From an uncultured cyanobacterium (lineage in GTDB: Bacteria > Cyanobacteriota > Cyanobacteriia > PCC-6307 > Cyanobiaceae), in contig CAIOGZ010000045.1 in NCBI GenBank assembly GCA_903858015.1, positions 7,178 to 71,177 of the forward strand: 64,000 nt of DNA, given 5' to 3'. The notes under the pieces were generated by a model. The model did not search any database. It had not been told where the DNA came from and worked only from the letters and a program-made list of their open reading frames with translations. Of the stretch, positions 26,219-48,780 are shown piece after piece. A program made the position numbers and the translations under genes. Position 1 is the first letter of the stretch. Every line of letters begins with the position of its first letter.

Positions 26219-27724
26219 ATGAGCAACTTTCAAATGCCCCGATTAACATTTAACAGCCCAGGGGCAAAGAGGTTGTATGACGAGCTTGCTTCCACAGATA
26301 GCAATCACGCCTTTGCGAACTACGTCCGTAGACGCACAGATCAGGTAGAGGCTACTAATAGCCTAAGACTAGGTGATACTTTTGACTTGAAGCGTATCAT
26401 CTCGCTTGAGTTCTATACTCTATCTGATCTTCACCGATTGCATGCGGCCCTGATTGGAGCAGTATTACGGGCGCAAGCCATCGACAAGATCGACCGTCTC
26501 AACTTCATTGATCAAGTCGACAAATTTGCCATTGCTGCCGATCGAGGCTTTGATACTGAAAGATCATCCTTTATCAAGGAGATTCCATTCCATAGAAGTT
26601 CAGAACTCTTTAGTGGATTTTCTCTGCGCCTGGATCTCGTAGGTGGATCCCTAGTGCGTATTATTGCCACTCTTAGGCCATCGGAAATACTCATCGATTT
26701 TTTCAGTGATATCTCCAAAGTTCAGATAGACACATTGCTTGACCTTCGTCGACGGTGGGCTGGTTTTCCCTGGGAGGATATTCACATTTCAGTCGACAAA
26801 GGAAACGATCGCAAGCAGCGTCTCATTGAGGAGATTGATAGAGATATTACGCAGAATGTTGTCGGGTTTTTCATGAGGGACCTTTGTCCAGGGATTTACA
26901 TGGAAAGCTTTGGTGGCACTCCCATCCTTCAGGTTTTCTACCATAGAGACACGGGACCGGCGACTTCTTTTAATGATGTGGTTGCTGAGCGCATTCAGCA
27001 CAGAACTTCATTCTTCCAGATTTTAGCGCAGTCTGGTGTGGACCTTGACTACAGGACAGCCTCATCTATTGATGGCGATGAGATTATCGAACAGAGCCCC
27101 AGGAATCGATCCGCACTTGTGGCGACGGGAAAGATTATCGGGAGGAGTTCGTCGTTTTCACTTATAGAGATCGATCTCTTGACCATGCTTGGCGAAAAAG
27201 CCAGGTTATGGCTACAGCTTTGTCAACTGCATGATATTGAAAGAAGTTATGTCCGGCTGATGCTGAAAAAAAAGACAGCTGACCTCAGGGCCAAAAGACT
27301 TGAGACTTACAAGCTTAGAGCAACCCACAACCTTATTATATCTGCAACTGAGAAACGCGATAGGTTTTTAAAAACGGCTAGCAGCCAGCCCGCACTGTCT
27401 AAGTTCTTTTACGATGGTATGGCAAATAGGTCTGACTACGCCACGCAAAACTATGGCTACATATCCTCCCTAGGCAAGCAGCTAACAAGCAAGCTCTCTG
27501 CCATTCTTGACGACTCGGATGTTGTCCGTGATGAAGCTGATTCGGTGTTTCAAAGAAATATCCAGTGCATTGCTGTTGCAGTAGCAGTTTTCTCGGTACT
27601 TGCAGCCCTGTTCACTCCGATGCTTCAGATTCGTATTGAGCGTTGGGTGGGTGAGTGCTCCACTGCTGGGCAACAATGCCCTGCCACCTACACTACTTGC
27701 TGGTGGCTGCAGCCATTGCGCTAA
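26219..27724 (+). CDS. AT-rich hypothetical protein with one C-terminal TM helix
   Basis: 501-aa ORF, composition unlike flanks, TM segment IAVAVAVFSVLAALFTPML. No recognised family. Confidence 0.6.
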   Translation: MSNFQMPRLTFNSPGAKRLYDELASTDSNHAFANYVRRRTDQVEATNSLRLGDTFDLKRIISLEFYTLSDLHRLHAALIGAVLRAQAIDKIDRLNFIDQVDKFAIAADRGFDTERSSFIKEIPFHRSSELFSGFSLRLDLVGGSLVRIIATLRPSEILIDFFSDISKVQIDTLLDLRRRWAGFPWEDIHISVDKGNDRKQRLIEEIDRDITQNVVGFFMRDLCPGIYMESFGGTPILQVFYHRDTGPATSFNDVVAERIQHRTSFFQILAQSGVDLDYRTASSIDGDEIIEQSPRNRSALVATGKIIGRSSSFSLIEIDLLTMLGEKARLWLQLCQLHDIERSYVRLMLKKKTADLRAKRLETYKLRATHNLIISATEKRDRFLKTASSQPALSKFFYDGMANRSDYATQNYGYISSLGKQLTSKLSAILDDSDVVRDEADSVFQRNIQCIAVAVAVFSVLAALFTPMLQIRIERWVGECSTAGQQCPATYTTCWWLQPLR

Positions 27725-27748
27725 ATGTTATTATTGGGTTAATTGGTA

Positions 27749-28231
27749 ATGCCTTTTCTGCTTTCGGAAACTTTTCAAACAAGTCTGCTGAAGCTCAACG
27801 GCGAGGAGCAGAAAGCGGCCAAACTTGCCGCATTCGAGCTCCAGATCAACGCTGCCAATCCTGGTCTGCAGTGCCACCGGCTCGACAACATCAAGGACAA
27901 GAACTTCTGGTCTGCTCGCGCCAGCCGTGACATCCGTCTGATCTTCCATCGGGTCGAGAGCAGCGCCATGCTCTGCTACGTCGACCATCACGATTCCGCC
28001 TACGACTGGGCTTCGCGCCGCAAGATCGAAACCCATCCCGTCACCGGTGCCGCCCAGATCGTGGAGATCCGCGAAACGGTTCGCGAGATCCAGATCCCCC
28101 TCCATGTCCCCGCTGAATCTCCGGCCACGCCGGAGCCCAAGCGGCCGCTCTCCAACCTCACGGAAGCCGACCTGCTCAGCTACGGCGTTCCTGCCGAGTG
28201 GATTCCTGATGTCCGCACAGCGGACGACGAC
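27749..28231 (+). pseudogene. 5'-only copy of the RelE-UvrD helicase gene
   Basis: Near-identical to 29901-30409 up to GCGGACGACGAC, then unrelated sequence. Confidence 0.9.
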
Positions 28232-28712
28232 TCTCCGCTATTGGATGGACCCGGAATCCACCTTGCAGCAAGGCTCCGCCTGCCCTTACTTCTCCCAATG
28301 CGCTCGCCGAAAAGCTAAAATCTTCGATTTGCAAGCACCTTGCCAAGCGAGAAACAAGCCATTCGCTATGCTCAGACATTAGGTCAAACTGTCGTATTGC
28401 CTCGTTGGTCATATGAAGGGTTGAAATGTCGATACCGACTTGAATTAGAGATCGAAACATCGCTACCAGCGGATGATCGCGATACGTCTTAGGGGAACGC
28501 CATATGCGACCAATAGATGGCTCATCCAATTTGCTGCCAAGTGCGGGTGCCCGCTCGACAAGGTTTCGATAGATTCTATCTACGGTCATTGGTTGGTTTT
28601 ATTTCTTATCCTACGTGAGCCGTATTGGCCTGCGGGTGGCAGGCCACCATGGACGGGTCCTTACATCTCTTACGATCAGGGGCTAGACTGAGCAAGGTTC
28701 TTGGCGCAGCTG

Positions 28713-29291
28713 ATGACCCCACAAGCTGAGTTTCAGGCCGCTGTTCTCGATCAGCTTCGCCGTGCACCGCTCGATCCTCCAGCCCAGGCAGCACTGCTGC
28801 AGGCGCTGACCTCTGTGGCCCCGCGGGAAGGTGCCGTTACCGCCAAGGCAGACGGCCCGCTCGCCGAATGGCTGGGAGAGCCCCCTGCCAATGCCGCACA
28901 GCTCGAGTTCGAAGCACTCCGGCGCAGCTTTGCCCTCCGCCACCAGCTCCTGGCCTCCACTATCGGTACAGCCGAGGTGAACGAGCTCCTCGCCGCCGGC
29001 AGCCGCCAGACGGTGCACGACCGCCTCAGGGCCGGCACCCTGCTGGGGATCCTTGATCAGGGGAAATGGCGCTTCCCCCTCTGGCAGTTCGACGCCGATG
29101 GCCCCAACGGTGTGATCGACGGACTGGCCCAGGTGCTGCAGGCCCTGCAGGTCTCCAACCTGGCCAAGGCCCGCTGGCTGCAAAAGCCCCATGCGGTTTT
29201 CGGCGGCTTCACCCCCTTGGATCTGCTCCGCCACGGCCGTCTCGAAGACGTATTGGCGGAAGCGGGCCAGGTGGGTCGTGGTCAGGATTGA
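28713..29291 (+). CDS. Xre/MbcA/ParS-like antitoxin (HTH plus toxin-binding C-terminus)
   Basis: SRQTVHDRLRAGTLL, WRFPLWQF, WLQKPHAVFGGFTPLDLL. Overlaps a RES gene. Confidence 0.75.
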   Translation: MTPQAEFQAAVLDQLRRAPLDPPAQAALLQALTSVAPREGAVTAKADGPLAEWLGEPPANAAQLEFEALRRSFALRHQLLASTIGTAEVNELLAAGSRQTVHDRLRAGTLLGILDQGKWRFPLWQFDADGPNGVIDGLAQVLQALQVSNLAKARWLQKPHAVFGGFTPLDLLRHGRLEDVLAEAGQVGRGQD

Positions 29292-29889
29292 TCCGCCCCC
29301 TCCCCGCAGGTCCACGTCTCCGCTGATCGAGATCCTGCCGATGGCAGCACCGTTGCTCCGCATCTACAGACCGCAGCCCTATGGCAGCAGTGCTTGCAGC
29401 TTCCGTTACGAGGGGCCGTTCTCACGCTTTGATCACCACGCCGATGGCCACTTGCGTGGAATTCACTACAGCGCACCTTCCTTGTCGTCTTGTGTCGTCG
29501 AAGTCTTCGGTGACACAGGGCTGATTGAACCACAGGGTTGCCAGCTGGTCCTGCTGCGCACAAACCGCCCCATGGCCCTGCTCGATCTACGAGGCAGCGG
29601 CGCCATGCGAGCCGGGAGTGTTGTTGCACTCAATGCCACAGCTGATCGATCGCTGAGTCAGCAGTGGTCTCGCTTTTTCTACGGCACAGCCGTAGCCGAT
29701 GAAAGACCGATCGATGGCTTGCTCTACAGCAATGCTCACAACGGCGAATCGGCCCTGGCCCTCTACGAACGGGCCGAAGCAGCGATCCACTGTGATGCCG
29801 AGCTGTCGCTTGCGGCGGACGAGCTTCGCAGCCGCCTGCTGGCTATCGCCAACGACCACGGCATGACCATGGCCTCATCCGGCTCCTGA
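29278..29889 (+). CDS. RES-domain toxin
   Basis: RIYR, RFDH, CVVEVFG, GLLYSNAHN. GTG start overlapping the antitoxin. Confidence 0.8.
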   Translation: MVRIDPPPPRRSTSPLIEILPMAAPLLRIYRPQPYGSSACSFRYEGPFSRFDHHADGHLRGIHYSAPSLSSCVVEVFGDTGLIEPQGCQLVLLRTNRPMALLDLRGSGAMRAGSVVALNATADRSLSQQWSRFFYGTAVADERPIDGLLYSNAHNGESALALYERAEAAIHCDAELSLAADELRSRLLAIANDHGMTMASSGS

Positions 29890-29900
29890 ACCACAATCCC

Positions 29901-32006
29901 ATGGCTTTCCTCCTCGCCGACAGCTTCCAATCCAGCCTTGAGAAGCTCAGTGGAGAAGAGCAGAAAGCTGCCAAGCTCGCCGCCTTCGAGCTGCAAATCA
30001 ACTCTGCCAATCCTGGTCTGCAATGCCACCGCCTCGACAACATCAAGGACAAGAACTTCTGGTCTGCCCGCGCCAGCCGTGACATCCGGCTGATCTTCCA
30101 TCAGGTTGAGAGCAGCGTGATGCTCTGCTACGTCGACCATCACGATCTCGCCTACGACTGGGCCTCACGGCGCAAGATCGAAACCCATCCCGTCACCGGC
30201 GCCGCCCAGATCGTGGAGATCCGCGAAACGGTTCGCGAGATTCACATCCCCATTCACGTCCCCGCAGCAGCGGCCACAGCTACATCCGCAGCCACAACCA
30301 CAGCAGCCCCTGAGCCCAAGCGGCCTCTTTCCAACCTCACGGAAGCCGACCTGCTCAGCTACGGCGTTCCCGCCGAGTGGATCCCTGATGTCCGCACAGC
30401 GGACGACGACATGCTGCTGGTGATCGCCTCCCATCTCCCCGGTGAGGCTGCCGAAGCGATCATCGATCTGGCCACCGGCACCACACCCACCAAGCCGGTG
30501 GTAAGGCAGCCAGACCAGAGCAATCCTTACGAGCACCCCGATGCTCAGCGCCGCTTCCGGGTGCTCACCGGCACCGAAGAGCTGGCCCGGGCGCTGGACT
30601 ACCCCTGGGAGCGCTGGATCGTCTTCCTTCACCCCAGCCAGGCTGACTGGGTGAGCCGCTCCTTCAATGGCCCCACCCGCGTGCAGGGCTCTGCTGGTAC
30701 GGGCAAAACCGTTGTGGCCCTGCACCGCGCCGTTCATCTGGCTCGTAGAAAACCCGAAGCCAGGGTGTTGCTGACCACCTTCTCCGAGCCCCTGGCGGCC
30801 CTACTGCAGGACAAACTCCATCGCCTGATCCAGGGGGAGCCCAGGCTGATTGAGCGCCTGGATGTGCTGGCCATGCAAGAACTTGGCGAGCGGATGCACG
30901 CCGCCCAGCTCGGTAAGCCGCAGCTCATTACTCCCGAGGACCTTCGCGCATTGATTCAGCGGTATGCGCCGGTGGAGATCAGCCGCGTCTATGGCGAGGC
31001 CTTCGTGGTGGAGGAGTTCAGCGAGATCGTCGATGCTTTCGGGCTGCGCGACTGGGACAGCTACCGCGATGTCCGCCGCCTCGGCCGTAAGAGCCGCCTC
31101 AATGAGGCCAAGCGCCGTTTGCTCTGGGAGGGCTTCGAGGCCGTCCTCCAGGAGCTGGAGCGCTCAGGCCAGATCACGCCCCAACAGCTCTTCCATCGCA
31201 CCGCCGAACAGCTGCACCGCAGCGGCGTCAGGCCCTACCAGCACATCGTGGTGGACGAATGCCAGGACATCACAGCCGCCCAGCTCCGTCTCCTGGCAGC
31301 TCTGGCGGGGACCGGCCCCGATGCCCTTTTCTTTGCGGGGGATCTCGGTCAGCGCATCTTCCAACAGCCCTTCTCCTGGACCCAGTACGGCGTGGACATC
31401 CGCGGCCGCTCGCGCACCCTCCGCATCAATTACCGCACCTCCCACCAGATTCGCAGCCAAGCCGATCAGCTGCTCGATCCCGAGTCCCGCGACGTGGACG
31501 GCAACGTGCAGGACCGGCGCGGCGCCATCTCCGTGTTCAACGGACCGGAGCCCGACATCCGGGAATGCGAGGACTCAGGCAGCGAAACCGAGCAGGTGGC
31601 GGGCTGGATTGAACAGCGCCGCAGCGAAGGCCTCACCCCCAGGGAGTTCGGCATCTTCGTGCGCAGCGAGGCCGAGATCACCCGTGCCGAGGCTGCTCTC
31701 CAGCTAGCTGAGCTGCCCTACGAGCGTCTGCAGCCTTCGGCCATCCGTCTTGGCAGCAAGGCCACCCTCTCCACCATGCACCTGGCCAAAGGGCTGGAGT
31801 TCCGCGCCGTGATCGTGATGGCCTGCGATGAAGACGTAATCCCCAACGCCGAGCGCATCAAGGCCATCACCGACGACAGCGACCTCGATGAAGTGGTGGC
31901 CACCGAACGCCACCTGCTCTACGTGGCCTGCACCCGCGCCCGGGATCACCTGCTGATCACCAGTGGTGACACCTGCTCGGAGTTCGTGGAGGATCTGCGC
32001 GGGTGA
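29901..32006 (+). CDS. UvrD/Rep-like SF1 helicase with N-terminal RelE/ParE-fold domain
   Basis: GSAGTGKT, VVDECQD, AGDLGQRIF, INYRT, AKGLEF, LYVACTRAR. N-terminal FWSARASRDIRLI...LCYVDHHD is RelE-like. Confidence 0.88.
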   Translation: MAFLLADSFQSSLEKLSGEEQKAAKLAAFELQINSANPGLQCHRLDNIKDKNFWSARASRDIRLIFHQVESSVMLCYVDHHDLAYDWASRRKIETHPVTGAAQIVEIRETVREIHIPIHVPAAAATATSAATTTAAPEPKRPLSNLTEADLLSYGVPAEWIPDVRTADDDMLLVIASHLPGEAAEAIIDLATGTTPTKPVVRQPDQSNPYEHPDAQRRFRVLTGTEELARALDYPWERWIVFLHPSQADWVSRSFNGPTRVQGSAGTGKTVVALHRAVHLARRKPEARVLLTTFSEPLAALLQDKLHRLIQGEPRLIERLDVLAMQELGERMHAAQLGKPQLITPEDLRALIQRYAPVEISRVYGEAFVVEEFSEIVDAFGLRDWDSYRDVRRLGRKSRLNEAKRRLLWEGFEAVLQELERSGQITPQQLFHRTAEQLHRSGVRPYQHIVVDECQDITAAQLRLLAALAGTGPDALFFAGDLGQRIFQQPFSWTQYGVDIRGRSRTLRINYRTSHQIRSQADQLLDPESRDVDGNVQDRRGAISVFNGPEPDIRECEDSGSETEQVAGWIEQRRSEGLTPREFGIFVRSEAEITRAEAALQLAELPYERLQPSAIRLGSKATLSTMHLAKGLEFRAVIVMACDEDVIPNAERIKAITDDSDLDEVVATERHLLYVACTRARDHLLITSGDTCSEFVEDLRG

Positions 32007-32268
32007 TCCCGCAAACCTGTCGTCGAGCCCGGCCTGGAATCAGCGTTGCGGCAATGTAGGCGAATTGGCTTAGAGCGACACCAGATGGGGTGTCGGGCGG
32101 TGCAGCGACGAGCGAGCATTCGGGCTGTGTCTCCAGAAGCAATTGTCGGCGGGATGGTGCTCGCCGCCGGGGCTCGATCAAGGAGGCGGAGGCACAACCC
32201 ATGGCGGCACATCTGGCGCCCGGCAGCCGCCCTGCCTAACCTGATTCGGATTACCACCATGGCCCCGC

Positions 32269-35200
32269 TTGCGCCCCGCCTCCCCCGCCACGCCCAAGCC
32301 TTACCGCCGCTGGAGTCCGCCGTCACCAGCCAGGGCGGCAAGTTCCCGGCTGACCCGGCCCTGGTGGGCCCTATCCCTACTGCTGGCGGCGGCAGCCGTC
32401 ACATCCCCACTGCTACTGCCCCCCGCCCGAGCCCAAGCCCCCCCAGCCCCAGCTGCCGGCCAGTCCGGCCCCCCCGCCGACCCGCGCCCCTTCCCGGCCC
32501 TTGACCCCGGCATGCATACCGCGATCATCAAGCGTCTCGCGGTGGACCGGGCCGGCCGCTGGCTGGTCACCGCCTCCGACGACAAGACCGCCCGGGTGTG
32601 GGACCTGGCCAACGGCGGCCGGCTCGCCGCGGTGCTGCGGGTGCCGGTGGGGGAGGGCAATGAAGGCAAGCTCTACGCCGTGGCCCTCAGCCCCGTTGGC
32701 GCCCTGGTGGCCCTGGGCGGCTTCACAGGGCCTGATGGCAAGGAACAAGCGATCTACCTGTTCGATCGCGCCAGCGGCCGCCTCCTTCAGCGCCTCGGCG
32801 GCCTGCCCAGCTCTGTCAACCATCTGGCCTTCTCCGCCGACGGCCGCCGCCTCGCCGCCGCCCTCGGCTGGGCCAACGGCCTCCGGGTGTATGAACCCGG
32901 CGCCGACGGCCGCTGGGCCCAGGTGGCCGCCGATGCCGCCTACGGGGATGACAGCTACAGCGTGGAGTTCGACGCCAGCGGCCGCCTGCTCGCCACCAGC
33001 AGGGACGGTGATCTGCGGCTCTACGCCGCCGGCCAGCGGGGCCCCCTCACCCCCCTGCAGCGCCGCCCCGCCCCCGGTGGCCGGGAGCCGTTCTTCGCGC
33101 GGTTTTCGCCTGATGGTCGCCGCATTGCCGTGGGGTTCTACGACAGCAGCGCCGTCACCGTGCTCGATGGCGCCAGCCTGGCCCCCCTCCCCTCCCCCGA
33201 CACCAGCGGGTTACGCAACGGCAATGTGAGCTCCATGGACTGGAGCGCCGACGGCCAGCGCCTGCTCGCCGCCGGCAAGTACGGCCAGGACGATGGCAGC
33301 AATCCTCTGGTGGCCTGGCCCAGCGCCGGAGGCGCCCCCCGATTCCTGCCCCTGGGGATGAGCGACACCGTGATGGACCTGCGGCCCTTGGCCGACGGAC
33401 GACTTGTGTTCGGCGGGGGAGGGCCGGCCTGGGGGGTGCTCGACGCCCAGCTCCAGCGCACCTCCCTCTTCCGCGGCCCGCCGGTGCTCGACCATCGCAG
33501 CAATGCCGCCAGCAGCAACAGCCACGCGGGCTATGAGGCGTTCCGCCTGGCCCCCGCCGGCGAGGGCCACTGGCTTGAATTCCGCGCCGTGAGCCGCGAC
33601 GCCGCCGGCGCCCGCGCCCGCCTGGTGCGTTTCGACCTGGCCGAGCGCCGCCTGCTTCTGCCCACCTCCCCCGCCCCCGCCGGCCTCGCCCCCCGCACCA
33701 CCGGCCTGCCCATCGACGGCTGGGAAGACACCACCACCCCCACCCTGGCGGGCAAGCCCCTGCCGCTGAAGCCGTACGAAGCCTCCCGCAGCCTGGCGAT
33801 CAGCGCCGATCGCCAGCGCTTTGCCCTCGGCAGCAACTGGGCCGTGCGCCTGTTCGGCGCCGAAGGCCAGCGCCGCTGGCGCACCCCCACCCCCGCTGCC
33901 GCCTGGCTGGTGAACCTCAGCCCCGACGGCCGCTTTGTGGTGGCCGCCCTCGGCGATGGCACGATCCGCTGGTATCGCACCCAGAAAGAAGGCTCCGCGG
34001 CGGCCGGCAGCGAGGCCCTCGCCCTGTTTGTGCATCCCGATCTGCAGCGCTGGATCCTCTGGACCCCCGAGGGCTTCTACGACGCCTCCCCCGGCGGCGC
34101 CGAGCTGTTCGGCTACCAGCTCAACAACGGCCGCGAGGCCGCCGGCAGCTTCATCCGCTCCGCCCAGCTGCAACGCCAGTTCCTGCGGCCCGATCTGATC
34201 GCTCGCCGCCTTTCCGGCCGCGCAGACGATGACGCTGCCATCGCCGCCGCCGTGGCCGAGGTGGGTGATGTGCGCCAGGTGCTGATGGCTGGCCGGCCGC
34301 CCCTGGTGCGGCCCGACACCCGCAACGGCGAGGCGGTGCGCACCCTGCCCAACGGCGATCTGGAGATCCATTTCCAGGTGGTGGATCAGGGCGGCGGCGT
34401 CGGCGATCTGGAGGTGCGGCTCAACGGCGTGCGGATCGAGGCCCGCCAGAACCTGCGCATCGGCGATCGCCCCGCCCTGGTGTTCACCCCGCCGCCACGC
34501 CGGCCCAACCAGCCGAGCAAGCCGGTGCTCACCATCGCCGCCGGCAACAGCCGCGGTGTGCTCGGCGAGCCCCTGCGTTTCGAGCTCACGACCACCATCA
34601 GCCAGGAGCCCCCCACCCTGCATGTGCTGGCGGTGGGAATCACCAACTACAAGAGCACGGTGCTGCAATCCGGCGTGCGCTTTGCGGCCGCCGATGCCCG
34701 AGCCCTCGTCACCACCCTGCAGTTGCCGGGCATCCTGGCCGATGCCCGACTCGGCTCCGTGGTGCTCATTCCCGAGGGGGAGGCCAGCCGCGACCGCATC
34801 CGCCAGGAGCTGCGGGTGATGGCCGGCAAGGTGAAGCCCGGCGATCGCTTCGTGCTCCACCTGGCCGGCCACGGCACCGCCCTCAATGGCGAGTACTACT
34901 TCCTCACCCAGGAGCTGGACAACGACAGCGAGGCGTCCATTCGCCGCCAAGCCCTCTCCGGCAACGAGCTGCGGGAGCTGCTGCGGCCGATCCAGGCCAG
35001 CGGCGGCACCCTGCTGCTGCTCGATACCTGCAGCTCCGGCACCTACGGCTCCCCCGCCCAGCGGGATCTGCAGGCCGCCGTGCGCCGCTTCGAAGAACTC
35101 GATGGCCGGCTGATGCTGGCGGCCGCGGGCGATCGCAGGATGGCCCTGGAAAGCCCCTACCAAGGGAGCGGCATCTTCACGGCGGTGGTGATCGAGGGGC

Positions 35201-37955: not shown

Positions 37956-37959
37956 GGCC

Positions 37960-39279: not shown

Positions 39280-39287
39280 CCTTCGCT

Positions 39288-39881: not shown

Positions 39882-39956
39882 TGGAACTTTCCATGACTGT
39901 TCATGGATTATGGCACACCTGACCACTGAGCGTCCTTGTGCGCATCAGCTTGGCCG

Positions 39957-39977
39957 TGTACAGTTGCTTTGTACAAT
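39957..39977 (+). promoter_or_regulatory. Twin TGTACA palindromes overlapping a TACAAT -10 box; probable Phd-type operator
   Basis: TGTACA at 39957 and 39970, TACAAT at 39972-39977, 14 bp before the antitoxin ATG. Confidence 0.5.
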
Positions 39978-39991
39978 GGAGTGCGCCTGGC

Positions 39992-40619: not shown

Positions 40620-40626
40620 CCGCCCC

Positions 40627-41534
40627 ATGGCTCTGCCAATCCAGGCCTGCATTGCCACCGGCTCGACAACATCAAGGACAAGAACTTCTGGTCTGCACGT
40701 GCCAGCCGTGATATTCGTCTGATATTCCATCGGGTCGAGAGCAGCTTGATGCTCTGCTACGTGGCCTACCACGATTCTACCGACGAATGCCAGGACATCA
40801 CCGCCGCCCAGCTCCGGCTCTTGACCGCTCTAGCGGGCACCAGCACCGATGCCCTGTTCTTCGCGGGGGATCTCGGCCAGCGCATCTTCCAGCAGCCCTT
40901 CTCCTGGACCCAATACGGCGTGGACATCCGCGGCCGCTCGCGCACCCTGCGCATCAACTACCGCACCTCCCATCAGATTCGCAGCCAAGCCGATCAGCTG
41001 CTCGATCCGGAGTCCCGCGACGTGGACGGCAACGTCCAAGAGCGGCGCGGCGCCATTTCCGTCCTCAACGGACCGGAGCCCGACATCCCAGAATGCGAGG
41101 ACTCAGGCAGCGAGACCGAGCAGGTAGCTGCCTGGATTGAGCAGCGCCGCAGCGAAGGCCTTACCCCCAGGGAGTTCGGCATCTTCGTGCGCAGCGAAGC
41201 CGAGAGCCCCCGTGCAAAATCAGCTCTGGAGTTAGCTGGGCTGCCCTACGAACGGCTGCAGCCCTCGGCCATGCGCCTTGGCGGCAAGGCCACCCTCTCC
41301 ACCATGCACCTGGCCAAAGGGCTGGAGTTCCGGGCCGTGATCGTGGTGGCCTGCGATGACGACGTAATCCCCAACGCCGAGCGCATCAATGCCATCACCG
41401 ACGACAGGGACCTCGATGAAGTGGTGGCCACCGAACGCCATTTGCTCTACCTGGCCTGCACCCGCGCCCGCGATCACCTGCTGATCACTAGCGGCGATAC
41501 CTGCTCGGAGTTTGTGGAGGACCTGCTCGGGTGA
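40627..41534 (+). pseudogene. RelE-UvrD helicase copy with two internal deletions
   Basis: ATGGCT is joined to CTGCCAATCC (about 95 bp lost), and the CACGAT region is joined to GACGAATGCCAGG (about 1.1 kb lost). The remainder matches 31254-32006. Confidence 0.9.
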
Positions 41535-41742
41535 ACCAGCCAGCAGGGACCAGCTTCAGATTGCGCAAACCGCCCGCACCATCGCCCTCCAGACGCAGCC
41601 GGTGGAGCAAGCCTTGCAAATCCGGCGGAGGGTTCGCAATGCCTTCGCCCACACCACCACAACGGCCACCCTCGCTTGTGTGACACCTTACCGGCGTCAT
41701 TGCGGGGAGGCCATGATTCTATAGCGCGATCGCGATCATGTG

Positions 41743-41915
41743 GATGAGCAGGCACGACAACGGCATCCAAGGCGATGGACAAGCGCCACCCGCTGTTGGC
41801 ATCAACCTGAAGTCTTGTGGGCTAACCAGCCACCGGAGGATCCCGCCATCCAGTCTGCTACTCTGAGATTGACCGCCTAGCCAGAGGCAGAGACATCATC
41901 TTTGCTGGCAGTCAC
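41743..41915 (+). mobile_element. IS3-family transposase 3' remnant
   Basis: Encodes an EQARQRHPRRW-type tail; similar to 47692-47870. Confidence 0.65.
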
Positions 41916-41959
41916 CGCGGCAGAAAACGATTAGACTTTTTTTGATAAATGGAACGACA

Positions 41960-42193
41960 ATGTCTGAATCCTGTTTGATGCTGCATGTGGAGCGGCTTCC
42001 GGAGGGTGGCTATCTGGCCACATCGGAAGCCATCCAGGGCCTGGTCGCCCAAGGCCGTACCGTTGCCGAAACTCTGGAAATCGCCCGTGATATTGCCCGG
42101 CGGTTGCTTGAAGCGCAGCAAGGGCGAAACCTAGACAACAGTCTGACAGCCATTTCCGAGAGCTTTGACTATCCGCTCATCGTCAGTGCCTGA
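41960..42193 (+). CDS. hicB: HicB-like antitoxin (DUF1902-type)
   Basis: EGGYLATSEAIQGLVAQGRTVAETLEIARD. Confidence 0.8.
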   Translation: MSESCLMLHVERLPEGGYLATSEAIQGLVAQGRTVAETLEIARDIARRLLEAQQGRNLDNSLTAISESFDYPLIVSA

Positions 42194-42417
42194 TGGGCAG
42201 GCTTTCAGGCTTTCGTTACCGCGAAATCACTAAAAAGCTGCGTAGCTTCGGCTTTGTATTTGATCGCCAGGCGGCCGGTTCTCATGAGATCTGGTATTGC
42301 GCGGCAAGCAATCGATACACCACCATCCCCAATCATCCAGGGGATATGCCCGAGGGCACACTCCGGGCCATCCTTAAGCAGGCTGATGTTGATGTTGATG
42401 ATTTTATTGGAAGCTGA
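42193..42417 (+). CDS. hicA: HicA mRNA interferase toxin
   Basis: GSHEIW, TIPNH, MPEGTLRAILKQA. TGATG overlap with hicB. Confidence 0.88.
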   Translation: MGRLSGFRYREITKKLRSFGFVFDRQAAGSHEIWYCAASNRYTTIPNHPGDMPEGTLRAILKQADVDVDDFIGS

Positions 42418-42689
42418 GCTTTCGCTGCTGTAGCAGTAAGTCTTAAGCAAGCAAGCTATAGCTTGAATCAGCACAAAGAACTTCCCAGAGCTGCTGGCAT
42501 TCCTTCTGCGTCCACAAATAGGTGCGCTGGTAGATCGGGATGATGAACCGGGAGACGGCGACCAGGATTTGGAGGAGTTTGGCTTCTGTGGCTTTCATTG
42601 AGAGACTGAGGCGGCCTGGAATACCCTCGACTGAAAGGCTGAAATCATGGTGCTAGACTGAGCTGGGTGCCTTTTACTGGACAGTTCCA

Positions 42690-43335
42690 ACCTCTGACAT
42701 CGTTAACCCCGGGCGGGAGGAACAGTGATCGGGCTCAGTATAGACCTTATGGGGAGTTCTGCCTCCCAGCCATCGCTGTAAGCGCGCAGATACACCGCCT
42801 CATACATGCCCGTTCTCCACAGCCGTTCCATGAGGATGTTGTCGTAGCAGCGCTTCCTTCCTGACCAGATGATCTTAATCTCCTCAGCCTATAGCTTGGC
42901 CACGAAGGCTGATGACGTGAACCGGCAACCCTGATCGTAGTGGAAGACCTCAGGCCTGCGGCCACCTCCCAACGCCATCTCCAGGGCCTCCAGGCAGAAC
43001 TCCGTGTCAAGGCTGTTGGAGTCCTTCCAGCTGAACACATGCCTGGAGAAGAGATCCACGATCGCCACCAGATAGAGGAAGCCTTTCTGTAGCGGGATAT
43101 AGGTGCTATCGGTGGCCCATGCCTGATCCACGCCCGTAAGTTGATCGAGATCCACCAAGCGGGAAAAGCGCTCAGATGGAGTCCCTGGAATGGTGGTGCG
43201 GGGTTTCTGGTAGATCGCCCGTAACCCCATGCAGCGCATCAGGATTCGCACTCGGTCACGGCTAATCGGGATCCCTTCTCTGGCCAGATACCCCACCATC
43301 CGGCGGCTGCCGCTGCAGGGATCCTCCAGGTAGGG
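42690..43335 (-). mobile_element. Degenerate IS3-family transposase (OrfB fragment)
   Basis: VDQAWATDSTYIPLQKGFLYLVAIVDLFSR and DQGCRF, with frameshifts and stops. Confidence 0.85.
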
Positions 43336-43447
43336 ACTCCTGAAAAAGCCAGATCCCCTGCGGCGCAGCTTGTTTCAGTGATCGAGAGCCGGTAAACTGA
43401 GCTTGATTACGGCAATTCACGATTGCTGCAAACTCTGAACGCTGCAA

Positions 43448-43747
43448 ATGTACCGAATACACCATAACGGCCAGCTCTCGATCGAGGAGTTCCATGTGCC
43501 TTTTGGGGGCAAGTTAAACCCGGACAACCGCTGGGTGCTCTTCTCGTCTCTGATGCCATGGGAAGCGCTGGAAGAAACATATGCCTCTCAGTTTAACCCC
43601 ACGACTGGCGCCCCTGCGAAGCCAGTGAGGCTGGCGTTTGGAGCGCTGCTCATCAAGCAGCGGCTTGGCTTGACCGATGAGGAGGCCGTCGGGCAGATCC
43701 GAGAAAATGTTTACATGCGTGTGCCACGAGGCATAGATTCTTCATGA
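43448..43747 (+). mobile_element. IS5-family transposase 5' fragment
   Basis: PFGGKLNPDNRWV...GAPAKPVRLAFGALLIKQRLGLTDEE, then truncated. Confidence 0.8.
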
Positions 43748-43879
43748 ACTATGCCGCAACTGTATCGAGGATGTGAGTGTGGCCTCCCGATGTCTGACTG
43801 CAGGGACTGACATCAAACGACCCCATGCTGCTGCGGTCAAAAGACGTGGTAGGGAGTGATGGGGAAAAGGCGGACTGGA

Positions 43880-43970
43880 TCCGGCCTCGCATCTCTCCTC
43901 GGTGCCATACAGCTCAAGGAACTGCGTCAAAGACATTCCAGGTTGGAACTGGGATCCGGTTCATAGGCAT
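43880..43970 (-). mobile_element. IS1595-family transposase 5' scrap
   Basis: MPMNRI (frameshift) QFQPGMSLTQFLELYGTEERCEA. Confidence 0.6.
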
Positions 43971-44061
43971 GAGATCGGAATTGGTACATGTGTTCCAGGC
44001 TAGCCCGAAAGATCGCTAGCGGAGCTTTCCACATAATCAGGACAGGTGATAAAATCGAATA

Positions 44062-46182
44062 CTATTCATCGGCCAGGAGGTGGCCATAAGCCTTCCTAAA
44101 GATGTCTTGATCATCGACGTGCGAGTCATTCAAGACAGAACAGATAGAGCTTGCCACGCTCAAAATATGCTCATCCGAAAGAAATCTTTGGCGATAAGTC
44201 TCATCAAGATGGCAAAATTCTATTTTCCTTTGATCTCGAGCACACCTCGCATAAAGATGGCGCATAAAACTGATGACGGTTACAGCTGCAGAACCAATAT
44301 AGCCACTCCTCTGTAAGCGATTTGAATGGACCAAGAATAGCCCATCGGAGATAAAGCGTTCAGGAATTTGCGTGTCGATGGCAAGCATATACAAAACATC
44401 TAAATCGTATAAAAGTATATTAATCAGATACTTGCCCGTAGCGCTTAATTCGTATACGATCTCATCGCCTTCCAGCTTGATGGAATCAATCCACCCAAAG
44501 GCCCGAGAGTCCTTAAGAGTCTGCTCTACACAGCTTCTATCGTACCCAAATGCATAAACCAAGGAATCACAAAGGTGCCCATGGCTCATTGTCCCGTTCC
44601 AAAGTATCTCTAAGATTCTAATCCTTAAGAATAAAAGAGAGGTTTTACTTTGGGATTGAGGAAATTGCCGCAAGTCAATCCAAAAAGGGTTGATATAGGC
44701 TAAGCCTTTATCACGATTTTTTTCATAGTATGTATCATTAGTCTGCAACAAAAAATCTCCATTTAGGAACAGGTTTCTTTTCATCATTTGTTGGGCCTGT
44801 CTAGAGAGATCAACGGATGGATCCTTTCCAAGCTGGTGCCAACGATATCTAACTTGATCAGCCAGAGTAGCAGAGTTCACAATTATGTTTCGGATATTAC
44901 TGTGCATGATATCTAAGGAGGGCAGCGCTGAAACGGCTGATTTAATGGTGTCGGTGGGAAAGAAAGAGGAATTGCTTGCAAGCAAATGACTTGACATCTT
45001 CTCGTTAAGCCAATCAGTCCGTTTTCGGGCTATTTCATTTACGTTAGGGACTTGGTGAATAATCTTTTTTGGTTTTGAAACGCTATTGCATCCTGTAGTG
45101 CTATGATCTTGTTTCAAAATATCTATCCATGTTCGATTTCGCATGACGGTTAGCCTTAGCTCATTAGCCGGCGCTACGCGTAACACAAAATTTACAAGCT
45201 CAGGGAGCAAGCGATTATAAGGTGCAACGCCATATTCTGTATTCAGGTGAAGGTTATCGACGCCATCTAGGATAAACAAAATATGAATTCCAATCTCGTC
45301 TAAGTATTTGCGAGTCATCTTACTGCATTCCTTCCATCGAAAGAATTGTCTTCGCTTTGATACTTTATCAGGGAATAATGTTGAGAATATGTATTTTTCA
45401 TCAGACTCGAGCATTTCACGTATATGCGTGTCAATATACTCATAGACGCCTCTAAGGTTGTACTCGACGCGATCTTCAGCTCTGCTTTGCTTGTGCCGAA
45501 ATAGTATCCCCGCATCTTTAATTCTCGCCATGAGTCGCCTAGCTATCCCGTTATATCTATTATGATCGGCAAGTATTGCAAGAAGTTGGAAATCAAAATA
45601 ATCATTAATTGTTGGATATAAATCTGCTGGGACACCATGCTTTACTGATGCCCATGCATCGAAGAGGGTCTGTGCATTGCAGCGAAGATAGAATATGTTA
45701 TTATTTTCAAGATATTCATGATTTCTGCTGAGCCAATAGTTTTGCATAGAGGTTTTTCCACTTCCTTTTGGGCCTATATAAACAATATTACCATACTTCC
45801 ATTTTCCTCTTTCGTCGAGCTCCAGGTATTGATTTAGGTCGACATACGTGCCAGTAATCACAAAGTATGAACATAGCTCATCTGGCGGCAGATGTGGAGT
45901 ATACGGGGCGGAGTCGGATGTTGATTCATAGGAGCTTACTGCGTTCCAGAAGGTCTTCTCTTCTTTGGCCAAGAAGTCACGAGGACTATTGTATCCATCT
46001 GGCTTAAGCCTCCTCAATATATTTTCATCATGATAAGGATAAACCAAAGTATCATACGAATACCTGGATTCATCAAATGATTGCAAGGTTTCATGGAGCA
46101 AGCGAATATCTATGCAGATTTTGGAATTTGTAGAGGATTTTTCACGCTTCTCTGAATTCAGAGAGTTTTCTGTGGAAGTCAT
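44062..46182 (-). CDS. AT-rich P-loop NTPase (STAND-like) with C-terminal winged-helix-like region
   Basis: Walker A IGPKGSGKT, Walker B ILFILDGVDN, C-terminal LRIRILEIL...YELSATGKY. Confidence 0.7.
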   Translation of the reverse strand: MTSTENSLNSEKREKSSTNSKICIDIRLLHETLQSFDESRYSYDTLVYPYHDENILRRLKPDGYNSPRDFLAKEEKTFWNAVSSYESTSDSAPYTPHLPPDELCSYFVITGTYVDLNQYLELDERGKWKYGNIVYIGPKGSGKTSMQNYWLSRNHEYLENNNIFYLRCNAQTLFDAWASVKHGVPADLYPTINDYFDFQLLAILADHNRYNGIARRLMARIKDAGILFRHKQSRAEDRVEYNLRGVYEYIDTHIREMLESDEKYIFSTLFPDKVSKRRQFFRWKECSKMTRKYLDEIGIHILFILDGVDNLHLNTEYGVAPYNRLLPELVNFVLRVAPANELRLTVMRNRTWIDILKQDHSTTGCNSVSKPKKIIHQVPNVNEIARKRTDWLNEKMSSHLLASNSSFFPTDTIKSAVSALPSLDIMHSNIRNIIVNSATLADQVRYRWHQLGKDPSVDLSRQAQQMMKRNLFLNGDFLLQTNDTYYEKNRDKGLAYINPFWIDLRQFPQSQSKTSLLFLRIRILEILWNGTMSHGHLCDSLVYAFGYDRSCVEQTLKDSRAFGWIDSIKLEGDEIVYELSATGKYLINILLYDLDVLYMLAIDTQIPERFISDGLFLVHSNRLQRSGYIGSAAVTVISFMRHLYARCARDQRKIEFCHLDETYRQRFLSDEHILSVASSICSVLNDSHVDDQDIFRKAYGHLLADE

Positions 46183-46669
46183 ACAGATTGTTCACAAGAT
46201 CTGACAACCATTCCTCACCTCCATGATAGTGAATTCTATGGTCATCTTCGATCGTATAGTCAAGTTTTTTTAGAAGTTCATAGAATCCCTTGCCTCGTAG
46301 CAATTCTTCATACTCTATGATCTCGCTGTAACAGTTTCGTGAAATCAATAATCGCTTGTCGATGTCACGTGTTGTACTGAGGCTTAGAATACAAAAATTG
46401 ATCGACGACATAATCTTTTCAATTCTGTTACGGTTACGATCTTCTACTTCTAGTCTCCGCTTAAAAGACTCAACGTCTTTCAGGAGTGCTGTCTTGTACT
46501 TTTCAAGCATTCGGCTTGCACATAAATCAGTAACTTTGGGAATTACTAAAGCTCCAAGCGCCACAAGTCCTCCCAGGTTCCCAACAAAATCGAATAGATT
46601 GCCAAAATAGGTAAAAAAGAAATTTGACATAGTCAATTTATGTAGATCAGACCTATTGCAGAAGAACAC
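46142..46669 (-). CDS. AT-rich small protein with N-terminal TM helix and coiled coil
   Basis: FVGNLGGLVALGALVIP then RMLEKYKTALLKDVESFK; overlaps the NTPase start. Confidence 0.55.
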   Translation of the reverse strand: MFFCNRSDLHKLTMSNFFFTYFGNLFDFVGNLGGLVALGALVIPKVTDLCASRMLEKYKTALLKDVESFKRRLEVEDRNRNRIEKIMSSINFCILSLSTTRDIDKRLLISRNCYSEIIEYEELLRGKGFYELLKKLDYTIEDDHRIHYHGGEEWLSDLVNNLYDFHRKLSEFREA

Positions 46670-46971
46670 TAGCCCAAGAATAGCACTGAATGCTTGATAA
46701 ATTAGAAAATCTTATCATACTCAGATCGGAGCTAAGGAGCCTCTGATCAAGAAGGCTCTTGATTAAGTACCAAGCTCCTCTATGTTCAAGAAGAGATCGG
46801 ACCATGTGTGGCAGTTAGAGATGGCCCGGAGGCTTCCTCCCAGTCATACCTTCGAGGTTGAAGCGGCGATTGAAGCGATAACAGAAGGTGCCAAGGCCCC
46901 TTCTGCCAGCAAAAGCAACGCCTCTCCATCCCGTTCATCTTCACCACCAGGGGGCTGGATGGAGCCATTCA

Positions 46972-47880
46972 ATGCGTCGTTACAGCGAGACCGTAAAAGC
47001 TGAGGTGAAAAGGCGTATGGGCCCACCGCAGCGGCAACGAATTGCTCAGATTTCCCAAGAGTTCGGCATCCATGTCGCCACCCTCTACAACTGGCGGCAT
47101 CACTGGCGTCTGCAGGGGGAAGTGGTGCCGGCATCAGCGAAAGACCCAGAGGGCTGGAGCACTGCCGACAAGTTAACGCTCGTGCTGGAGACCGCCGGGT
47201 TGAATGCCACTGAGCTGAGTGCTTACTGCAGGGAGCGGGGCCTGTTCCCCGAACAGGAGTAGCTGCTCCAGCAGGAGCTGCGCCGTAAGGACAAGGCCCT
47301 GGCGGCGGCGGCGGCCCTGCTGTAGCGGAACGCTTCTGCGAAGCAGTACGCCACTAAAAAAAAAGATCCAAGCCCCACTGCCGCCGTGGCCGCCGGAGCA
47401 CGGACCCTACGCCGTGGCCAAGCCAAACTTCCCCAGCAGCCAAAACCAGTTCCCAAGCTGAGGGCCGATGGCCCAAATCAAGTGGGAAGCTGGGATATCA
47501 GCTATTTGCCTACCAAAATCAAGGGGATCTGGCTCTATCTCTATCTGGTGGTTGATGTCTGGAGCCGAAAGATCGTGGCTTGGGATGTGGAGGAGAAGAA
47601 GGATCCTAAAATCACTGCCAAACTCGTCACACGAGCCTGCTTAAGTGAACAGATCAGCCGCCGCCGCCAGCAGCCGCTAATCTTGCACGCGGATGAGCAG
47701 GCACCACAACGGCATCCAAGGCGATGGACAAGCGCCAGCCGCTGTTGGCATCAACCTAAAGACGTATCGGTTAATCAACCACCCTACGATCCCGTGATCC
47801 AGAGCGCTACTCTGGCGTTGGCCGCAAAGCCGGCGGCAGAGACGTCATCGTTGCTGCCAATCACCGCCTTAGGTTTGCCG
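46972..47880 (+). mobile_element. Degenerate IS3-family element (OrfA plus internally deleted OrfB)
   Basis: MRRYSETVKAEVKRRM...TLYNWR; WDISYLP; LILHAD joined directly to EQAPQRHPRRW. Confidence 0.85.
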
Positions 47881-47930
47881 CAGCCTCTTCTCGTTTCCAC
47901 GGTGATACTCAGCTCTGCCGCACCCGGCTC

Positions 47931-48692
47931 ATGACTGATCCTCATACAGACGAAACCTCGCGATTGCGCTCACTTGGTTGGCCAGCTGCTGAGGTGAGCC
48001 GCTTTCAGAACCTGCAAGACTACAAGCATCGCTGGGGTGCAGCCAATTTGGAAAGAGAGGATCGTCTCTTCCTGAAAAAAGCTGAGTTAGCATTACTCCA
48101 GACTGGCGTGAGCCCGTTACGTCGTGAGGCGCGTTCGTCTTCCTCGCCGCGGTCGTCGGCAAGTTCAACCAGCCACTTGCCAGCAGTTTCCAATGCTGCC
48201 TCGTACGTTGCGCTTGACTTTGAAACCGCTAACAGCTCTCGTAACAGTGCCTGCTCGTTGGCGATCATTCGCGTTGAGGCACACCAGATTGTTTCACGCA
48301 CCTACCGATTGATCCGGCCGCCTTCAACCCATTTCATGTTCACACATATTCATGGCATCACCTGGAATGACGTGAGAAGCGAGCCAACATTCAAGGATCT
48401 CTGGCCTGAATTCAGGCCGCTGTTTGATGGCGTTAACTTCATCGCCGCCCATAACGCAAGCTTTGACAGCAATGTCATGAAGGCCTGCTGTCATACCTAT
48501 GGACTGGTTCCACCAGGCGCCCCCTACCTTTGCACCGTCAGGCTGGCACGACAGACCTGGCAGTTGAAGCCAGCCAATCTGCCTAGCGTTTGTTCCTACC
48601 TAGGCTTGCGCCTTGAGCATCACAACGCCCTCTCAGATGCCGAGGCCTGTGCGAACATCGTACGGGCAGCAGCTGGTTGCAAGGTCAAATGA
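47931..48692 (+). CDS. DEDDh 3'-5' exonuclease (DnaQ-like) with extra N-terminal helical domain
   Basis: VALDFETAN, AHNASFD, HHNALSDA, preceded by a 60-aa helical extension and Ser-rich linker. Confidence 0.85.
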   Translation: MTDPHTDETSRLRSLGWPAAEVSRFQNLQDYKHRWGAANLEREDRLFLKKAELALLQTGVSPLRREARSSSSPRSSASSTSHLPAVSNAASYVALDFETANSSRNSACSLAIIRVEAHQIVSRTYRLIRPPSTHFMFTHIHGITWNDVRSEPTFKDLWPEFRPLFDGVNFIAAHNASFDSNVMKACCHTYGLVPPGAPYLCTVRLARQTWQLKPANLPSVCSYLGLRLEHHNALSDAEACANIVRAAAGCKVK

Positions 48693-48697
48693 TTATT

Positions 48698-48780
48698 CAA
48701 AGGCCGCCAAACTCGCAGCATTTGGCCTATAGATCAATCCGGCTTATCCAGGCCTGCATTACCACCGGCTCGACAACATC
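48698..48780 (+). pseudogene. Short degenerate fragment of the RelE-UvrD helicase 5' end
   Basis: AAGGCCGCCAAACTCGCAGCATTT...CCACCGGCTCGACAACATC matches 27811-27893. Confidence 0.75.

Follow-up and report, generated by a model that had tools for sequence, protein, structure and literature searches.

Helicase gene copies alternate with toxin-antitoxin and other cargo genes in a res-mod-helicase island of an uncultured cyanobacterium

Genes for a Type III-like restriction endonuclease (res), a DNA methyltransferase (mod) and a UvrD-type helicase head an island in a stretch of DNA from an uncultured cyanobacterium of the family Cyanobiaceae (GenBank assembly GCA_903858015.1, contig CAIOGZ010000045.1, positions 7,178 to 71,177 of the forward strand). 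This whole stretch of 64,000 nucleotides is referred to here as the window, and the 74-kb contig as C45; coordinates are those of the window unless another locus is named. Within the island the helicase gene is present in six copies, labelled A to F from left to right, each of which follows a module of cargo genes, and a copy together with its cargo is called a unit. A preliminary description of this DNA, made from the letters alone, had reported five copies of the helicase 5' end; all five were recovered, but the count is six, a short scrap (F) having been missed. The features of the island are collected in Table 1.

For comparison we collected 151 related genomes at the level of the class or genus, 53 of which had a helicase match, and scanned bacteria at large with one genome per species, which yielded more than 560 relatives, the best 80 of which were compared (G and L numbers denote individual genomes and loci). 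In at least 13 congeneric genomes pepP and the HAD hydrolase gene lie only 13-300 bp apart, so that the junction occupied by the island is empty there; the position of the island differs between genomes, and it is also present on plasmids. With res at its left end and a helicase remnant at its right end (the right edge lies 47 bp from scrap F), the island is bounded by these two. A six-frame search of the whole 3.84-Mb assembly found the helicase copies confined to this contig. The array had also been called integrase-free. A six-frame search returned 14 matches to the tyrosine recombinase family PF00589 across the genome, none of them on C45, and a search for serine recombinases (PF00239) was likewise empty for C45, in keeping with the earlier statement that no integrase is present; as a description of the array, 'integrase-free' nevertheless ignores the insertion sequence (IS) fragments that lie inside it. 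A tRNA-targeting integrative island, such as a tycheposon, was considered and rejected, there being no integrase on the contig, a sole tRNA call (ARAGORN) that lies outside the island, and an insertion point between pepP and the HAD gene.

Table 1. Features of the island and its helicase array in window coordinates.
Feature	Coordinates	Strand	Remarks
Whole island	20057..51170		31 kb; inserted between pepP (18071-20056) and a HAD hydrolase gene (51171-52076, minus strand); flank identities by Pfam
res	20317..23391	+	BPTD_3080-family Type III-like restriction endonuclease, 1024 aa; first triad gene; Pfam ResIII
mod	23393..26197	+	Type III-like N6/N4 DNA methyltransferase, 934 aa; left wall of the slot; Pfam N6_N4_Mtase
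Orphan, cargo of unit A	26219..27724	+	AT-rich, 501 aa
Helicase copy A	27749..28231	+	codons 1 to ~170 (predicted RelE-fold domain and linker); frame open, then diverges; clean truncation
XreA antitoxin	28656..29291	+	Xre/MbcA/ParS C-terminal domain, Pfam PF09722
RES-like partner of XreA	29341..29889	+	open frame within open reading frame 29191-29889; directly upstream of intact helicase B
Helicase copy B	29901..32006	+	only intact copy, 701 aa; Pfam UvrD-helicase, UvrD_C
WD40-caspase gene	32269-35376	+	1035 aa, C-terminal caspase; Pfam WD40, Peptidase_C14
TIR/ThsB-like gene	35373-36950	+	525 aa; Pfam TIR_2; PADLOC ThsB 6.5e-53
Cargo of unit C	36975..37955	+	XreA scrap 37183-37240 (repeat D13), VapB (MazE/AbrB-type), VapC (PIN); Pfam
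Helicase copy C	37958..38310	+	codons 1-119; three stop codons
Second Xre-RES toxin-antitoxin pair	38776..39926	-	Pfam RES 8.6e-15, Xre_MbcA_ParS_C 2.8e-11
Phd/YefM antitoxin, cargo of unit D	39938-40234	+	Pfam
VapC-type PIN toxin, cargo of unit D	40218-40619	+	Pfam
Helicase copy D	40627..41540	+	ATG GCT, codons 34-83, codons 451-701, native stop
Mobile-element debris and other cargo	41742..47934	mixed	Pfam, Rfam; GC 41-42%
IS3 scrap	41742-41918		repeat matching 47691-47867 (self-BLASTN)
HicB/HicA	41942-42417		Pfam
rve fragment	42889-43299	-	Pfam
DUF772 transposase fragment	43448-43747		Pfam
Group II intron D1-D4 piece	43773-43889	+	Rfam RF01999, 80.8 bits; between DUF772 scrap and AT-rich 706-aa gene
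AT-rich 706-aa and 175-aa genes	44062-46669	-	GC 41-42%; IS fragments on both sides
IS3 orfA/orfB fragments	46888-47934		Pfam
DEDDh 3'-5' exonuclease, cargo of unit E	47931..48692	+	Pfam RNase_T 4e-18; PADLOC PDC-S48, DEDDh
Helicase copy E	48699..48780	+	81-bp scrap, codons 22-48; contains a stop codon
Second Phd-VapC remnant, unit F	50781..51057	+	277 nt; Phd and first ~12 VapC codons
Helicase copy F	51071..51123	+	53-nt scrap = B nt 1561-1613 (window 31461-31513, ~codons 521-538)

The copies were located by a direct-repeat search and by self-BLASTN of the window, and their state of decay was read from translations. Copy A matches 29901-30410, within B, at 84% over 510 columns (E value 2e-160), and C matches B at 87% (E value 1e-120). 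D is made up of two blocks, 40631-40789 (88%) and 40782-41540 (91% to 31254-32012, about the last 760 nt of B through the stop codon), and has lost codons 3-33 and codons 84-450 in two in-frame deletions whose junctions show 2-5 nt of microhomology. E (48700-48780) is 74-78% identical to A, B and C (E values 5e-11 to 1e-6), and F, which begins 14 nt past a Phd-VapC remnant, is identical to B at 42 of its 53 nucleotides (79%, repeat family D9) and translates as ADGQLDPESHVTGGNGQEG. The earlier term 'helicase 5' ends' does not suit E, which starts only at codon 22, nor D, which is no mere 5' end and also retains the 3' third of the gene.

The helicase copies lie close behind their cargo. From the upstream stop codon to the helicase copy there are 24 bp in A, 11 bp in B, 4 bp in C (counted in the ancestral reading frame of VapC, which carries a 2-bp frameshift), 7 bp in D and 6 bp in E, which agrees with the 4-24 bp given earlier for these five copies. 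The graded decay described at the same time was also seen in the translations, and it grows with distance from mod: A is open and cleanly truncated and B intact, C has acquired stop codons, D has undergone microhomology deletions, and E and F are scraps. The further statement that each copy lies behind a different module fails for D and F, which have the same type of cargo, Phd-VapC.

The cargo of the six units is otherwise diverse. The 501-aa orphan of unit A has no match in Pfam, NCBIfam or PADLOC, and a homologue with 26% identity occupies the same slot in Cyanobium sp. FGCU6 (G088). Unit B had been described as an Xre-RES pair; Pfam recognizes the Xre antitoxin, whose nucleotide identity is 94.5% to G084 and 86% to G009, but the 'RES' gene has no Pfam match. 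Its position after an Xre/MbcA-type antitoxin and the motif 'RFDHH...YSAPS...EVF' suggest that it encodes a divergent RES toxin, and it is unique to this genome among the sampled loci. By alignment to G082, the VapC gene of unit C carries its frameshift near codon 115; a frameshift in the VapC gene of unit D was ruled out, as 40218-40619 translates intact. The Phd-VapC remnant of unit F is 78% identical to 39989-40265 and 75-79% identical to all congeners. No DEDDh exonuclease like that of unit E was found upstream of the helicase in the other loci compared, and the segments behind stubs A and C (28232-28655 and 38311-38791) have no homologue among the fetched loci.

The intact helicase consists of a RelE/YoeB-fold domain (aa 1 to ~115), a linker and a UvrD-like superfamily 1 helicase (aa 246-701). 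The N-terminal domain is predicted to adopt a RelE-type alpha/beta fold: an AlphaFold2 model of aa 1-130 (predicted local distance difference test score, pLDDT, 87.6) retrieved RelE, YoeB and YafQ by Foldseek with a probability of 1.0 and target-normalised TM scores of 0.70-0.77. Because of this match, the repeated 5' end of the helicase would encode a RelE-fold domain. The corresponding Pfam match, to HigB-like_toxin, is weak (22 bits, E value 2e-4; gathering score 27), and a sequence search of the PDB with the domain gave nothing useful, so that only the fold search was informative. Across 73 homologues aa 1 to ~115 are nearly invariant, and His81, Tyr85 and Arg91 are invariant in all 73. 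A literature search for the res-mod-helicase triad, or for RelE-UvrD fusions in a restriction-modification context, returned nothing specific.

The res product scores 1264 bits against NCBIfam NF046055 (cut-off 800), and some 60 loci from different phyla have res upstream of the helicase; the mod product matches the PADLOC model MTase_III PDLC03632 over its full length with 1349 bits. The two genes are co-oriented and adjoin with a single base between them, the arrangement expected of a Type III restriction-modification pair, as far as sequence can tell. We considered whether the triad might be an Hma system and rejected this, because its methyltransferase is of a different class and none of its models matches: HmaB is a 5-methylcytosine methyltransferase (PMC8565338), whereas the mod product belongs to the N6_N4_Mtase family, and Hma models were absent from the PADLOC matches of res (all four families) and from the best 25 for mod and helicase.

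The best 80 helicase relatives come from most bacterial phyla and are 52-57% identical over the full length. The 3' end of mod and the start of the helicase could both be scored in 63 loci, and in all of them the same mod lies upstream of the helicase, with res wherever the contig reaches it; the other 17 loci are mostly short of upstream DNA, yet L114 and L093 have room and no mod. Across the 63 scored loci the gap between mod and helicase ranges from 8 bp to 9.9 kb and that between res and mod from 4 bp to 4.5 kb, and open reading frames in these gaps lie on the strand of the system in 111 cases of 125. Their matches include AbiL/AriA/PtuA/OLD-type ATPases, GmrSD, IetA with a subtilase, SIR2-HerA, AbiP2 reverse transcriptase, HamA, AbiJ and several PADLOC HEC and PDC families. 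The variable slot upstream of the helicase that had been proposed is thus found within the genus and, more widely than proposed, across phyla; the gap between mod and helicase serves the whole family as a slot in which other genes for defence or toxin-antitoxin modules dock. An unoccupied form is seen on a conjugative plasmid of Pseudomonas avellanae (NZ_CP091148.1, L167, 4034-12094), where the triad is compact, its stop and start codons overlap and its slots are empty, and IS91, IS5 and IS3 elements flank it; the PGAP label of its helicase is '3'-5' exonuclease'.

Within the genus, helicase alleles are 71-95% identical in protein, and their upstream neighbours vary: Phd-VapC is the commonest (at least nine genomes), the helicase stands directly behind mod in G005 and Cruz-8D1, and other genomes have HEPN genes (G066, G013, G049), a DUF3800 gene (G084) or an ABC-ATPase pair (G002, G058) in this place.

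Two further observations concern the triad itself. A closely similar res-mod deletion allele, with helicase and cargo kept, is present in three congeneric species (L041 in G013, L047 in G009 and L045 in G002); it retains res aa 1-175 and mod aa 831-930 in G013 and G009, and res 1-142 and mod 815-932 in G002, suggesting that the locus can pass from one species to another in a decayed form. In another cyanobacterial family, mod is split (L051 in G095, 4383-8070) into parts covering aa 1-476 and aa 441-929, which stand about 690 bp apart and overlap by 36 aa, and this may reflect an insertion or a swap at the target-recognition region.

Arrays with helicase fragments are not peculiar to this genome. 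About a dozen congeners carry several fragments or internally deleted copies on one contig, among them G002, G009, G032, G034, G066, G078, G082 and G084. In G002 the order is mod stub, ABC-ATPase pair, helicase stub (aa 1-93), Phd-VapC and helicase, and G058 shows, behind the same ATPase pair, a second stub from the 3' end of mod instead. A full helicase together with a 5' stub occurs in both G066 and G084 (the stubs ending at aa 125 and aa 150, respectively). In these two genomes and in G082 the minus-strand Xre-RES unit of the window is found behind a full helicase, and the three share the unit order helicase, RES/Xre (minus strand), Phd-VapC, helicase. Outside the close relatives, extra helicase fragments occur in 4 of 79 loci, so that stacking is exceptional and simple occupancy of the slot usual. 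A Lysobacterales locus (L126) has a stub of aa 1-49 that begins 9 bp past the stop codon of its first cargo gene and is followed by two cargo genes and a full helicase, and a Vicinamibacterales locus (L074) has a stub of aa 1-28 that begins 5 bp past the upstream stop codon. Copy number and order differ in every genome examined. In G066 (L038, 9032-11071) a gene for a 680-aa lipoxygenase lies between a helicase 5' stub and a 3' stub, which indicates that non-defence cargo can also be trapped.

Comparison of the alleles locates a recombination boundary. Intact helicase alleles are strongly mosaic; B, for example, is 76.5% identical to the allele of G066 in the first 200 nt and 89-96% identical after that. 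The first 100 nt fall into deep haplogroups, with 57-83% identity between and 82-98% within groups, and these haplogroups track the upstream neighbour: copies behind RES, VapC and Phd-VapC group together, and those behind the 501-aa orphan, HEPN genes and mod belong to other groups. Within nt 1-100, copies that follow toxin-antitoxin cargo share 88% identity among themselves and 71% with copies that follow other cargo; for nt 101-250 the figures are 88% and 85.5%, and label permutation gives p values, indicative only, of ~6e-4 and ~0.08, respectively. Scanned in 30-nt windows, sequences of different groups are 66-76% identical as far as nt 120 and 85-92% identical from nt 121 onward. Several independent scars lie near this boundary: the first deletion of D stops at nt 101, E begins at nt 64 and the main copy of G002 begins at aa 35. 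On the mod side, similarity to relatives breaks off some 15 nt short of the mod stop codon. The switch of haplogroups at about nt 100-120 implies that the cassette comprises the cargo and the first 30-40 helicase codons, and that the later helicase is the right homology arm. Recombination within the helicase 5' end had been proposed before, and both the haplogroups and the window identities now place its boundary.

The relationships of the copies were examined by pairwise identity and with IQ-TREE over the first 351 nt. B is closest to the alleles of G084 (93.2%) and G009 (92.6%), and A to those of G002 (93.1%) and G047 (90.6%), with 87.7% between A and B; C forms a long branch whose best match is G084 (87.7%), with B at 86.9%. 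The view that the copies derive from alleles of other strains is thus supported by A and B, which are closer to other genomes than to each other; C is about as close to B as to its best match. A and B differ with a ratio of nonsynonymous to synonymous divergence (dN/dS) of 0.10, C and B with one of 0.15 (range for C 0.15-0.16); intact alleles of different genomes give 0.04-0.10. Had a copy been dead since its split from B, about half of the divergence would be neutral and dN/dS would be near 0.5. The low values imply that most of the divergence arose while the copies were working genes, and divergence under selection in turn points to other lineages or to long-lived full-length paralogues. By these comparisons, the copies look like separate alleles and not like fragments duplicated in situ.

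Taken together, we think that the array was, on balance, probably produced by additive, homology-anchored capture of cassettes into the res-mod-helicase slot, followed by decay. Strains of the genus would trade cassettes by homologous recombination, with the end of mod and the helicase from about nt 100-120 as arms, and the cargo would travel with the first ~30-40 helicase codons. An ordinary double crossover in mod and helicase swaps the cargo and leaves no stub, so that stubs which keep their native spacing to the cargo on their left need another origin. We infer that in this genome units were added and not exchanged, one arm crossing over by homology while the other side was joined illegitimately or through microhomology; alternatively, a single crossover with a circularised fragment (Campbell-type) could have been involved. 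Each event would leave a cargo with its attached helicase copy, and only B would stay under selection while the others decay by point mutation, microhomology deletion and IS insertion. Capture would then be serial, as the preliminary description had it, and the decay gradient and the place of F at the island edge suggest that new units enter beside mod and push older ones outward. Addiction to toxin-antitoxin modules may favour additive recombinants, the loss of a resident module being costly, and stacking is concentrated in the genus whose cargo is mostly toxin-antitoxin.

Several observations weigh against this account. The junction between E and the DEDDh gene may be a deletion scar and not a native boundary of cargo and helicase, and the intact helicase takes the second place in the array and not the final one, which leaves no single simple model of polarity that fits every unit. 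The unit order shared by three congeners and the common cargo of D and F fit the inheritance or transfer of multi-unit blocks better than capture one by one. The 351-nt maximum-likelihood tree is weak, with bootstraps of 23-49 at key nodes; because these are too low, donor lineages cannot be named. The permutation p values suffer from the phylogenetic non-independence of the sequences. For C, B being among its nearest alleles, an old duplication within the genome is possible. The frameshift in the VapC of unit C and the deletion in that of unit F count against addiction, and IS fragments could have mediated some of the rearrangements.

The alternative that survives best, although we regard it as rather unlikely, is an old tandem duplication, in which a unit of cargo and helicase was copied in place several times by unequal crossing-over, for instance in a polyploid cyanobacterium between copies of its chromosome. 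More than one full helicase would then have been kept for long, their cargo swapped by double crossover, and all but one would have decayed recently. The low dN/dS fits such long-lived functional paralogues equally well, Phd-VapC is the cargo of both D and F, and G084, G066 and G082 have at least two helicase copies per contig in the same unit order. However, A and B are each clearly closer to alleles of other genomes, the first 100 nt of A belong to another haplogroup than those of B, C and the Phd-VapC-linked copies, copy number and order vary in every genome examined, and lone stubs stand beside unrelated cargo in Lysobacterales and Vicinamibacterales. Duplication is most credible for C, D and F; no foreign allele is much closer to C than B is.

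Partial duplicates of a target gene around inserted DNA are also the classic footprint of integrative elements, and a piece of a group II intron is present along with IS3 and IS5 fragments. A site-specific or targeted mobile element might use the helicase 5' end as its attachment site and carry a replacement 5' end, as tRNA-targeting islands do, the repeats being remnants like attL and attR. This is very unlikely, since the 3' ends of the stubs all differ (aa 170, 119 and 48 in the window; 150, 125 and 93 in G084, G066 and G002; 49 and 28 in L126 and L074), the copies are 9-25% divergent with no identical core, matches to tyrosine and serine recombinases are absent from the 74-kb contig, and the IS fragments lie away from the stub boundaries. 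The assembly is a draft of 100 contigs and many contigs of relatives break at this locus, so that alternative strain alleles might have been strung together through shared helicase sequence; such an artefact is highly improbable, given that no two copies agree exactly over more than 49 nt, a stretch that lies inside the copies and not at their ends, that stop codons, in-frame microhomology deletions and scraps are not products of an assembler, that similar multi-copy arrangements occur in at least eight independent assemblies, and that completeness is 99.93% and contamination 0.74%. Programmed variation, with the 5' copies as silent donors for gene conversion of the RelE-fold N-domain of the expressed helicase, like Neisseria pilS cassettes, would suit the mosaic intact alleles and the open frame of A but is scarcely credible, as the stubs span the most conserved and not the variable part of the protein, C and E contain stop codons, E and F are too short as donors, and most triad genomes are free of stubs (which occur in 4 of 79 loci).

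A further reading may be offered tentatively: the triad may be a portable, integrase-free cassette dock, whose built-in homology arms (the final mod codons on one side, the helicase beyond about codon 35 on the other) would allow strains to exchange entire defence or toxin-antitoxin cassettes through ordinary recombination, and in which toxin-antitoxin cargo makes a one-way ratchet. Cassettes would pile up because recombinants that lose the resident toxin-antitoxin module die.

The rest of the island holds other candidate defence genes and debris. The WD40-caspase and TIR/ThsB-like genes behind helicase B overlap by 4 nt, have a GC content of 72-74%, unlike the rest of the island, and form a candidate two-gene defence pair; this pair is found beside the helicase in no relative among the loci compared. 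Between units D and E, the 706-aa gene, which has the 175-aa gene as its partner, shows only faint P-loop/NACHT-like matches, and no intron-encoded reverse transcriptase was seen near the group II intron fragment. The array also includes a Fic/DOC gene, and its DDE transposase fragments are of IS3 and IS5 type.

Three repeats or calls lie in the window outside the island. Tandem coding repeats of ~130 bp, 67-91% identical, at 3275-3610 and 7496-8558 are common to two large minus-strand open reading frames (3224-5608 and 5647-8607) upstream of a gene for a lysozyme and C39-peptidase protein (8754-10733). The sole ARAGORN call, an 84-nt tRNA-Ala(GGC) at 53031-53114 on the plus strand, lies within a 393-aa minus-strand open reading frame and is probably false. 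A 21-nt tandem repeat of at least four copies (55440-55538) is located where two minus-strand open reading frames meet, adjoined by genes for a PP2C phosphatase and a protein kinase.

Genes nested in a host defence system have been described previously. Defence genes lie nested within Hma, BREX, DISARM and Type I restriction-modification hosts, in 62.7% of Hma systems, and 96.7% of them over the four host systems are co-oriented; for the mechanism of embedding, that study offers the idea of a 'genomic sink' alone and does not mention stubs of host genes (Payne et al. 2024, doi 10.1101/2024.01.29.577857). Other nested examples are PrrC in EcoprrI and TgvAB in the Type I restriction-modification system of Vibrio cholerae VPI-2 (PMC11411939). 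The triad loci resemble these in having co-oriented foreign cassettes inside a multi-gene system, as seen from their gap sizes, the strand of the gap reading frames and the known defence families among them; the cargo overlaps (ABC-ATPase systems, GmrSD-like genes, Septu PtuA, HEC and PDC families), and many hosts are empty and many hold several genes. They differ in that the host, a BPTD_3080-type Res with an N6/N4 Mod and a RelE-fold UvrD helicase, lies outside the four hosts of Payne et al. 2024, in that the Cyanobium cargo is mostly toxin-antitoxin, and in that the stubs and the cargo-linked helicase 5' end point to recombination arms. New here are therefore a further embedding host and a legible fossil record that locates these arms; embedding itself had already been published.

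In the Immigration Control Region of Escherichia coli (hotspot 36), integrase-free exchange through conserved flanks is the accepted view (PMC12707154). Variable defence content between conserved anchors, the lack of a resident site-specific recombinase and presumed homologous exchange are common to both. The anchors there are chromosomal core genes, whereas here they belong to a mobile defence system, so that the hotspot travels with the system; moreover, displaced units pile up here instead of being replaced.

Orphan cdiA-CT/cdiI modules of contact-dependent inhibition (CDI) systems are comparable displaced arrays. Rows of displaced modules with fragments of a conserved gene are likewise known from Rhs orphan toxins (PMC3967940) and Neisseria MafB cassettes (PMC4287609). 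In all of these, as here, each displaced module has a fragment that serves as a homology handle, one unit is intact, and recombination in the conserved segment is thought to be the origin. There, however, what varies is the conserved gene's own 3' end with its immunity gene, and the conserved fragment lies upstream of the orphan, whereas here whole independent genes vary and the helicase 5' fragment lies downstream; the array thus falls outside this family, and the likeness is one of process. Re-activation of orphans by recombination has been shown for Rhs.

With integrons and integrase-less attC clusters the array shares a one-directional row of promoterless-looking cassettes from different sources. 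It differs in the lack of an IntI, as seen from the empty PF00589 search of the contig, in boundaries that fall inside a protein-coding gene, and in units that decay and are not reshuffled. The junctions of 4-24 bp leave no room for attC, and the units share only helicase, Phd-VapC and IS3 repeats, although no dedicated attC model was run. 'Integron-like', as the array had been called, is an analogy only. Homology-facilitated illegitimate recombination has been described for naturally transformable Acinetobacter and Streptococcus pneumoniae, where it is defined in the laboratory. In it a homologous anchor and a microhomology join add DNA, which would give a truncated duplicate of the flanking gene, as here; for the 3' junctions of the present stubs, no matching donor sequence was found.

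Embedding has only lately been recognised and has already served the discovery of genes. With its pan-bacterial spread and its two variable slots, the triad could be mined by the same logic of guilt by embedding. The stubs, the switch at nt 100-120 and the microhomology scars make a mechanism of cassette turnover testable. Toxin-antitoxin addiction may block replacement, which is a possible reason why some slots stack cassettes and others swap them. Should the triad indeed be a dock of the kind proposed, it would be a recombination-based functional counterpart of the integron that travels with its own defence system. If confirmed in strain-resolved populations, the account given here would explain how defence genes move without an integrase in picocyanobacteria and in other bacteria.

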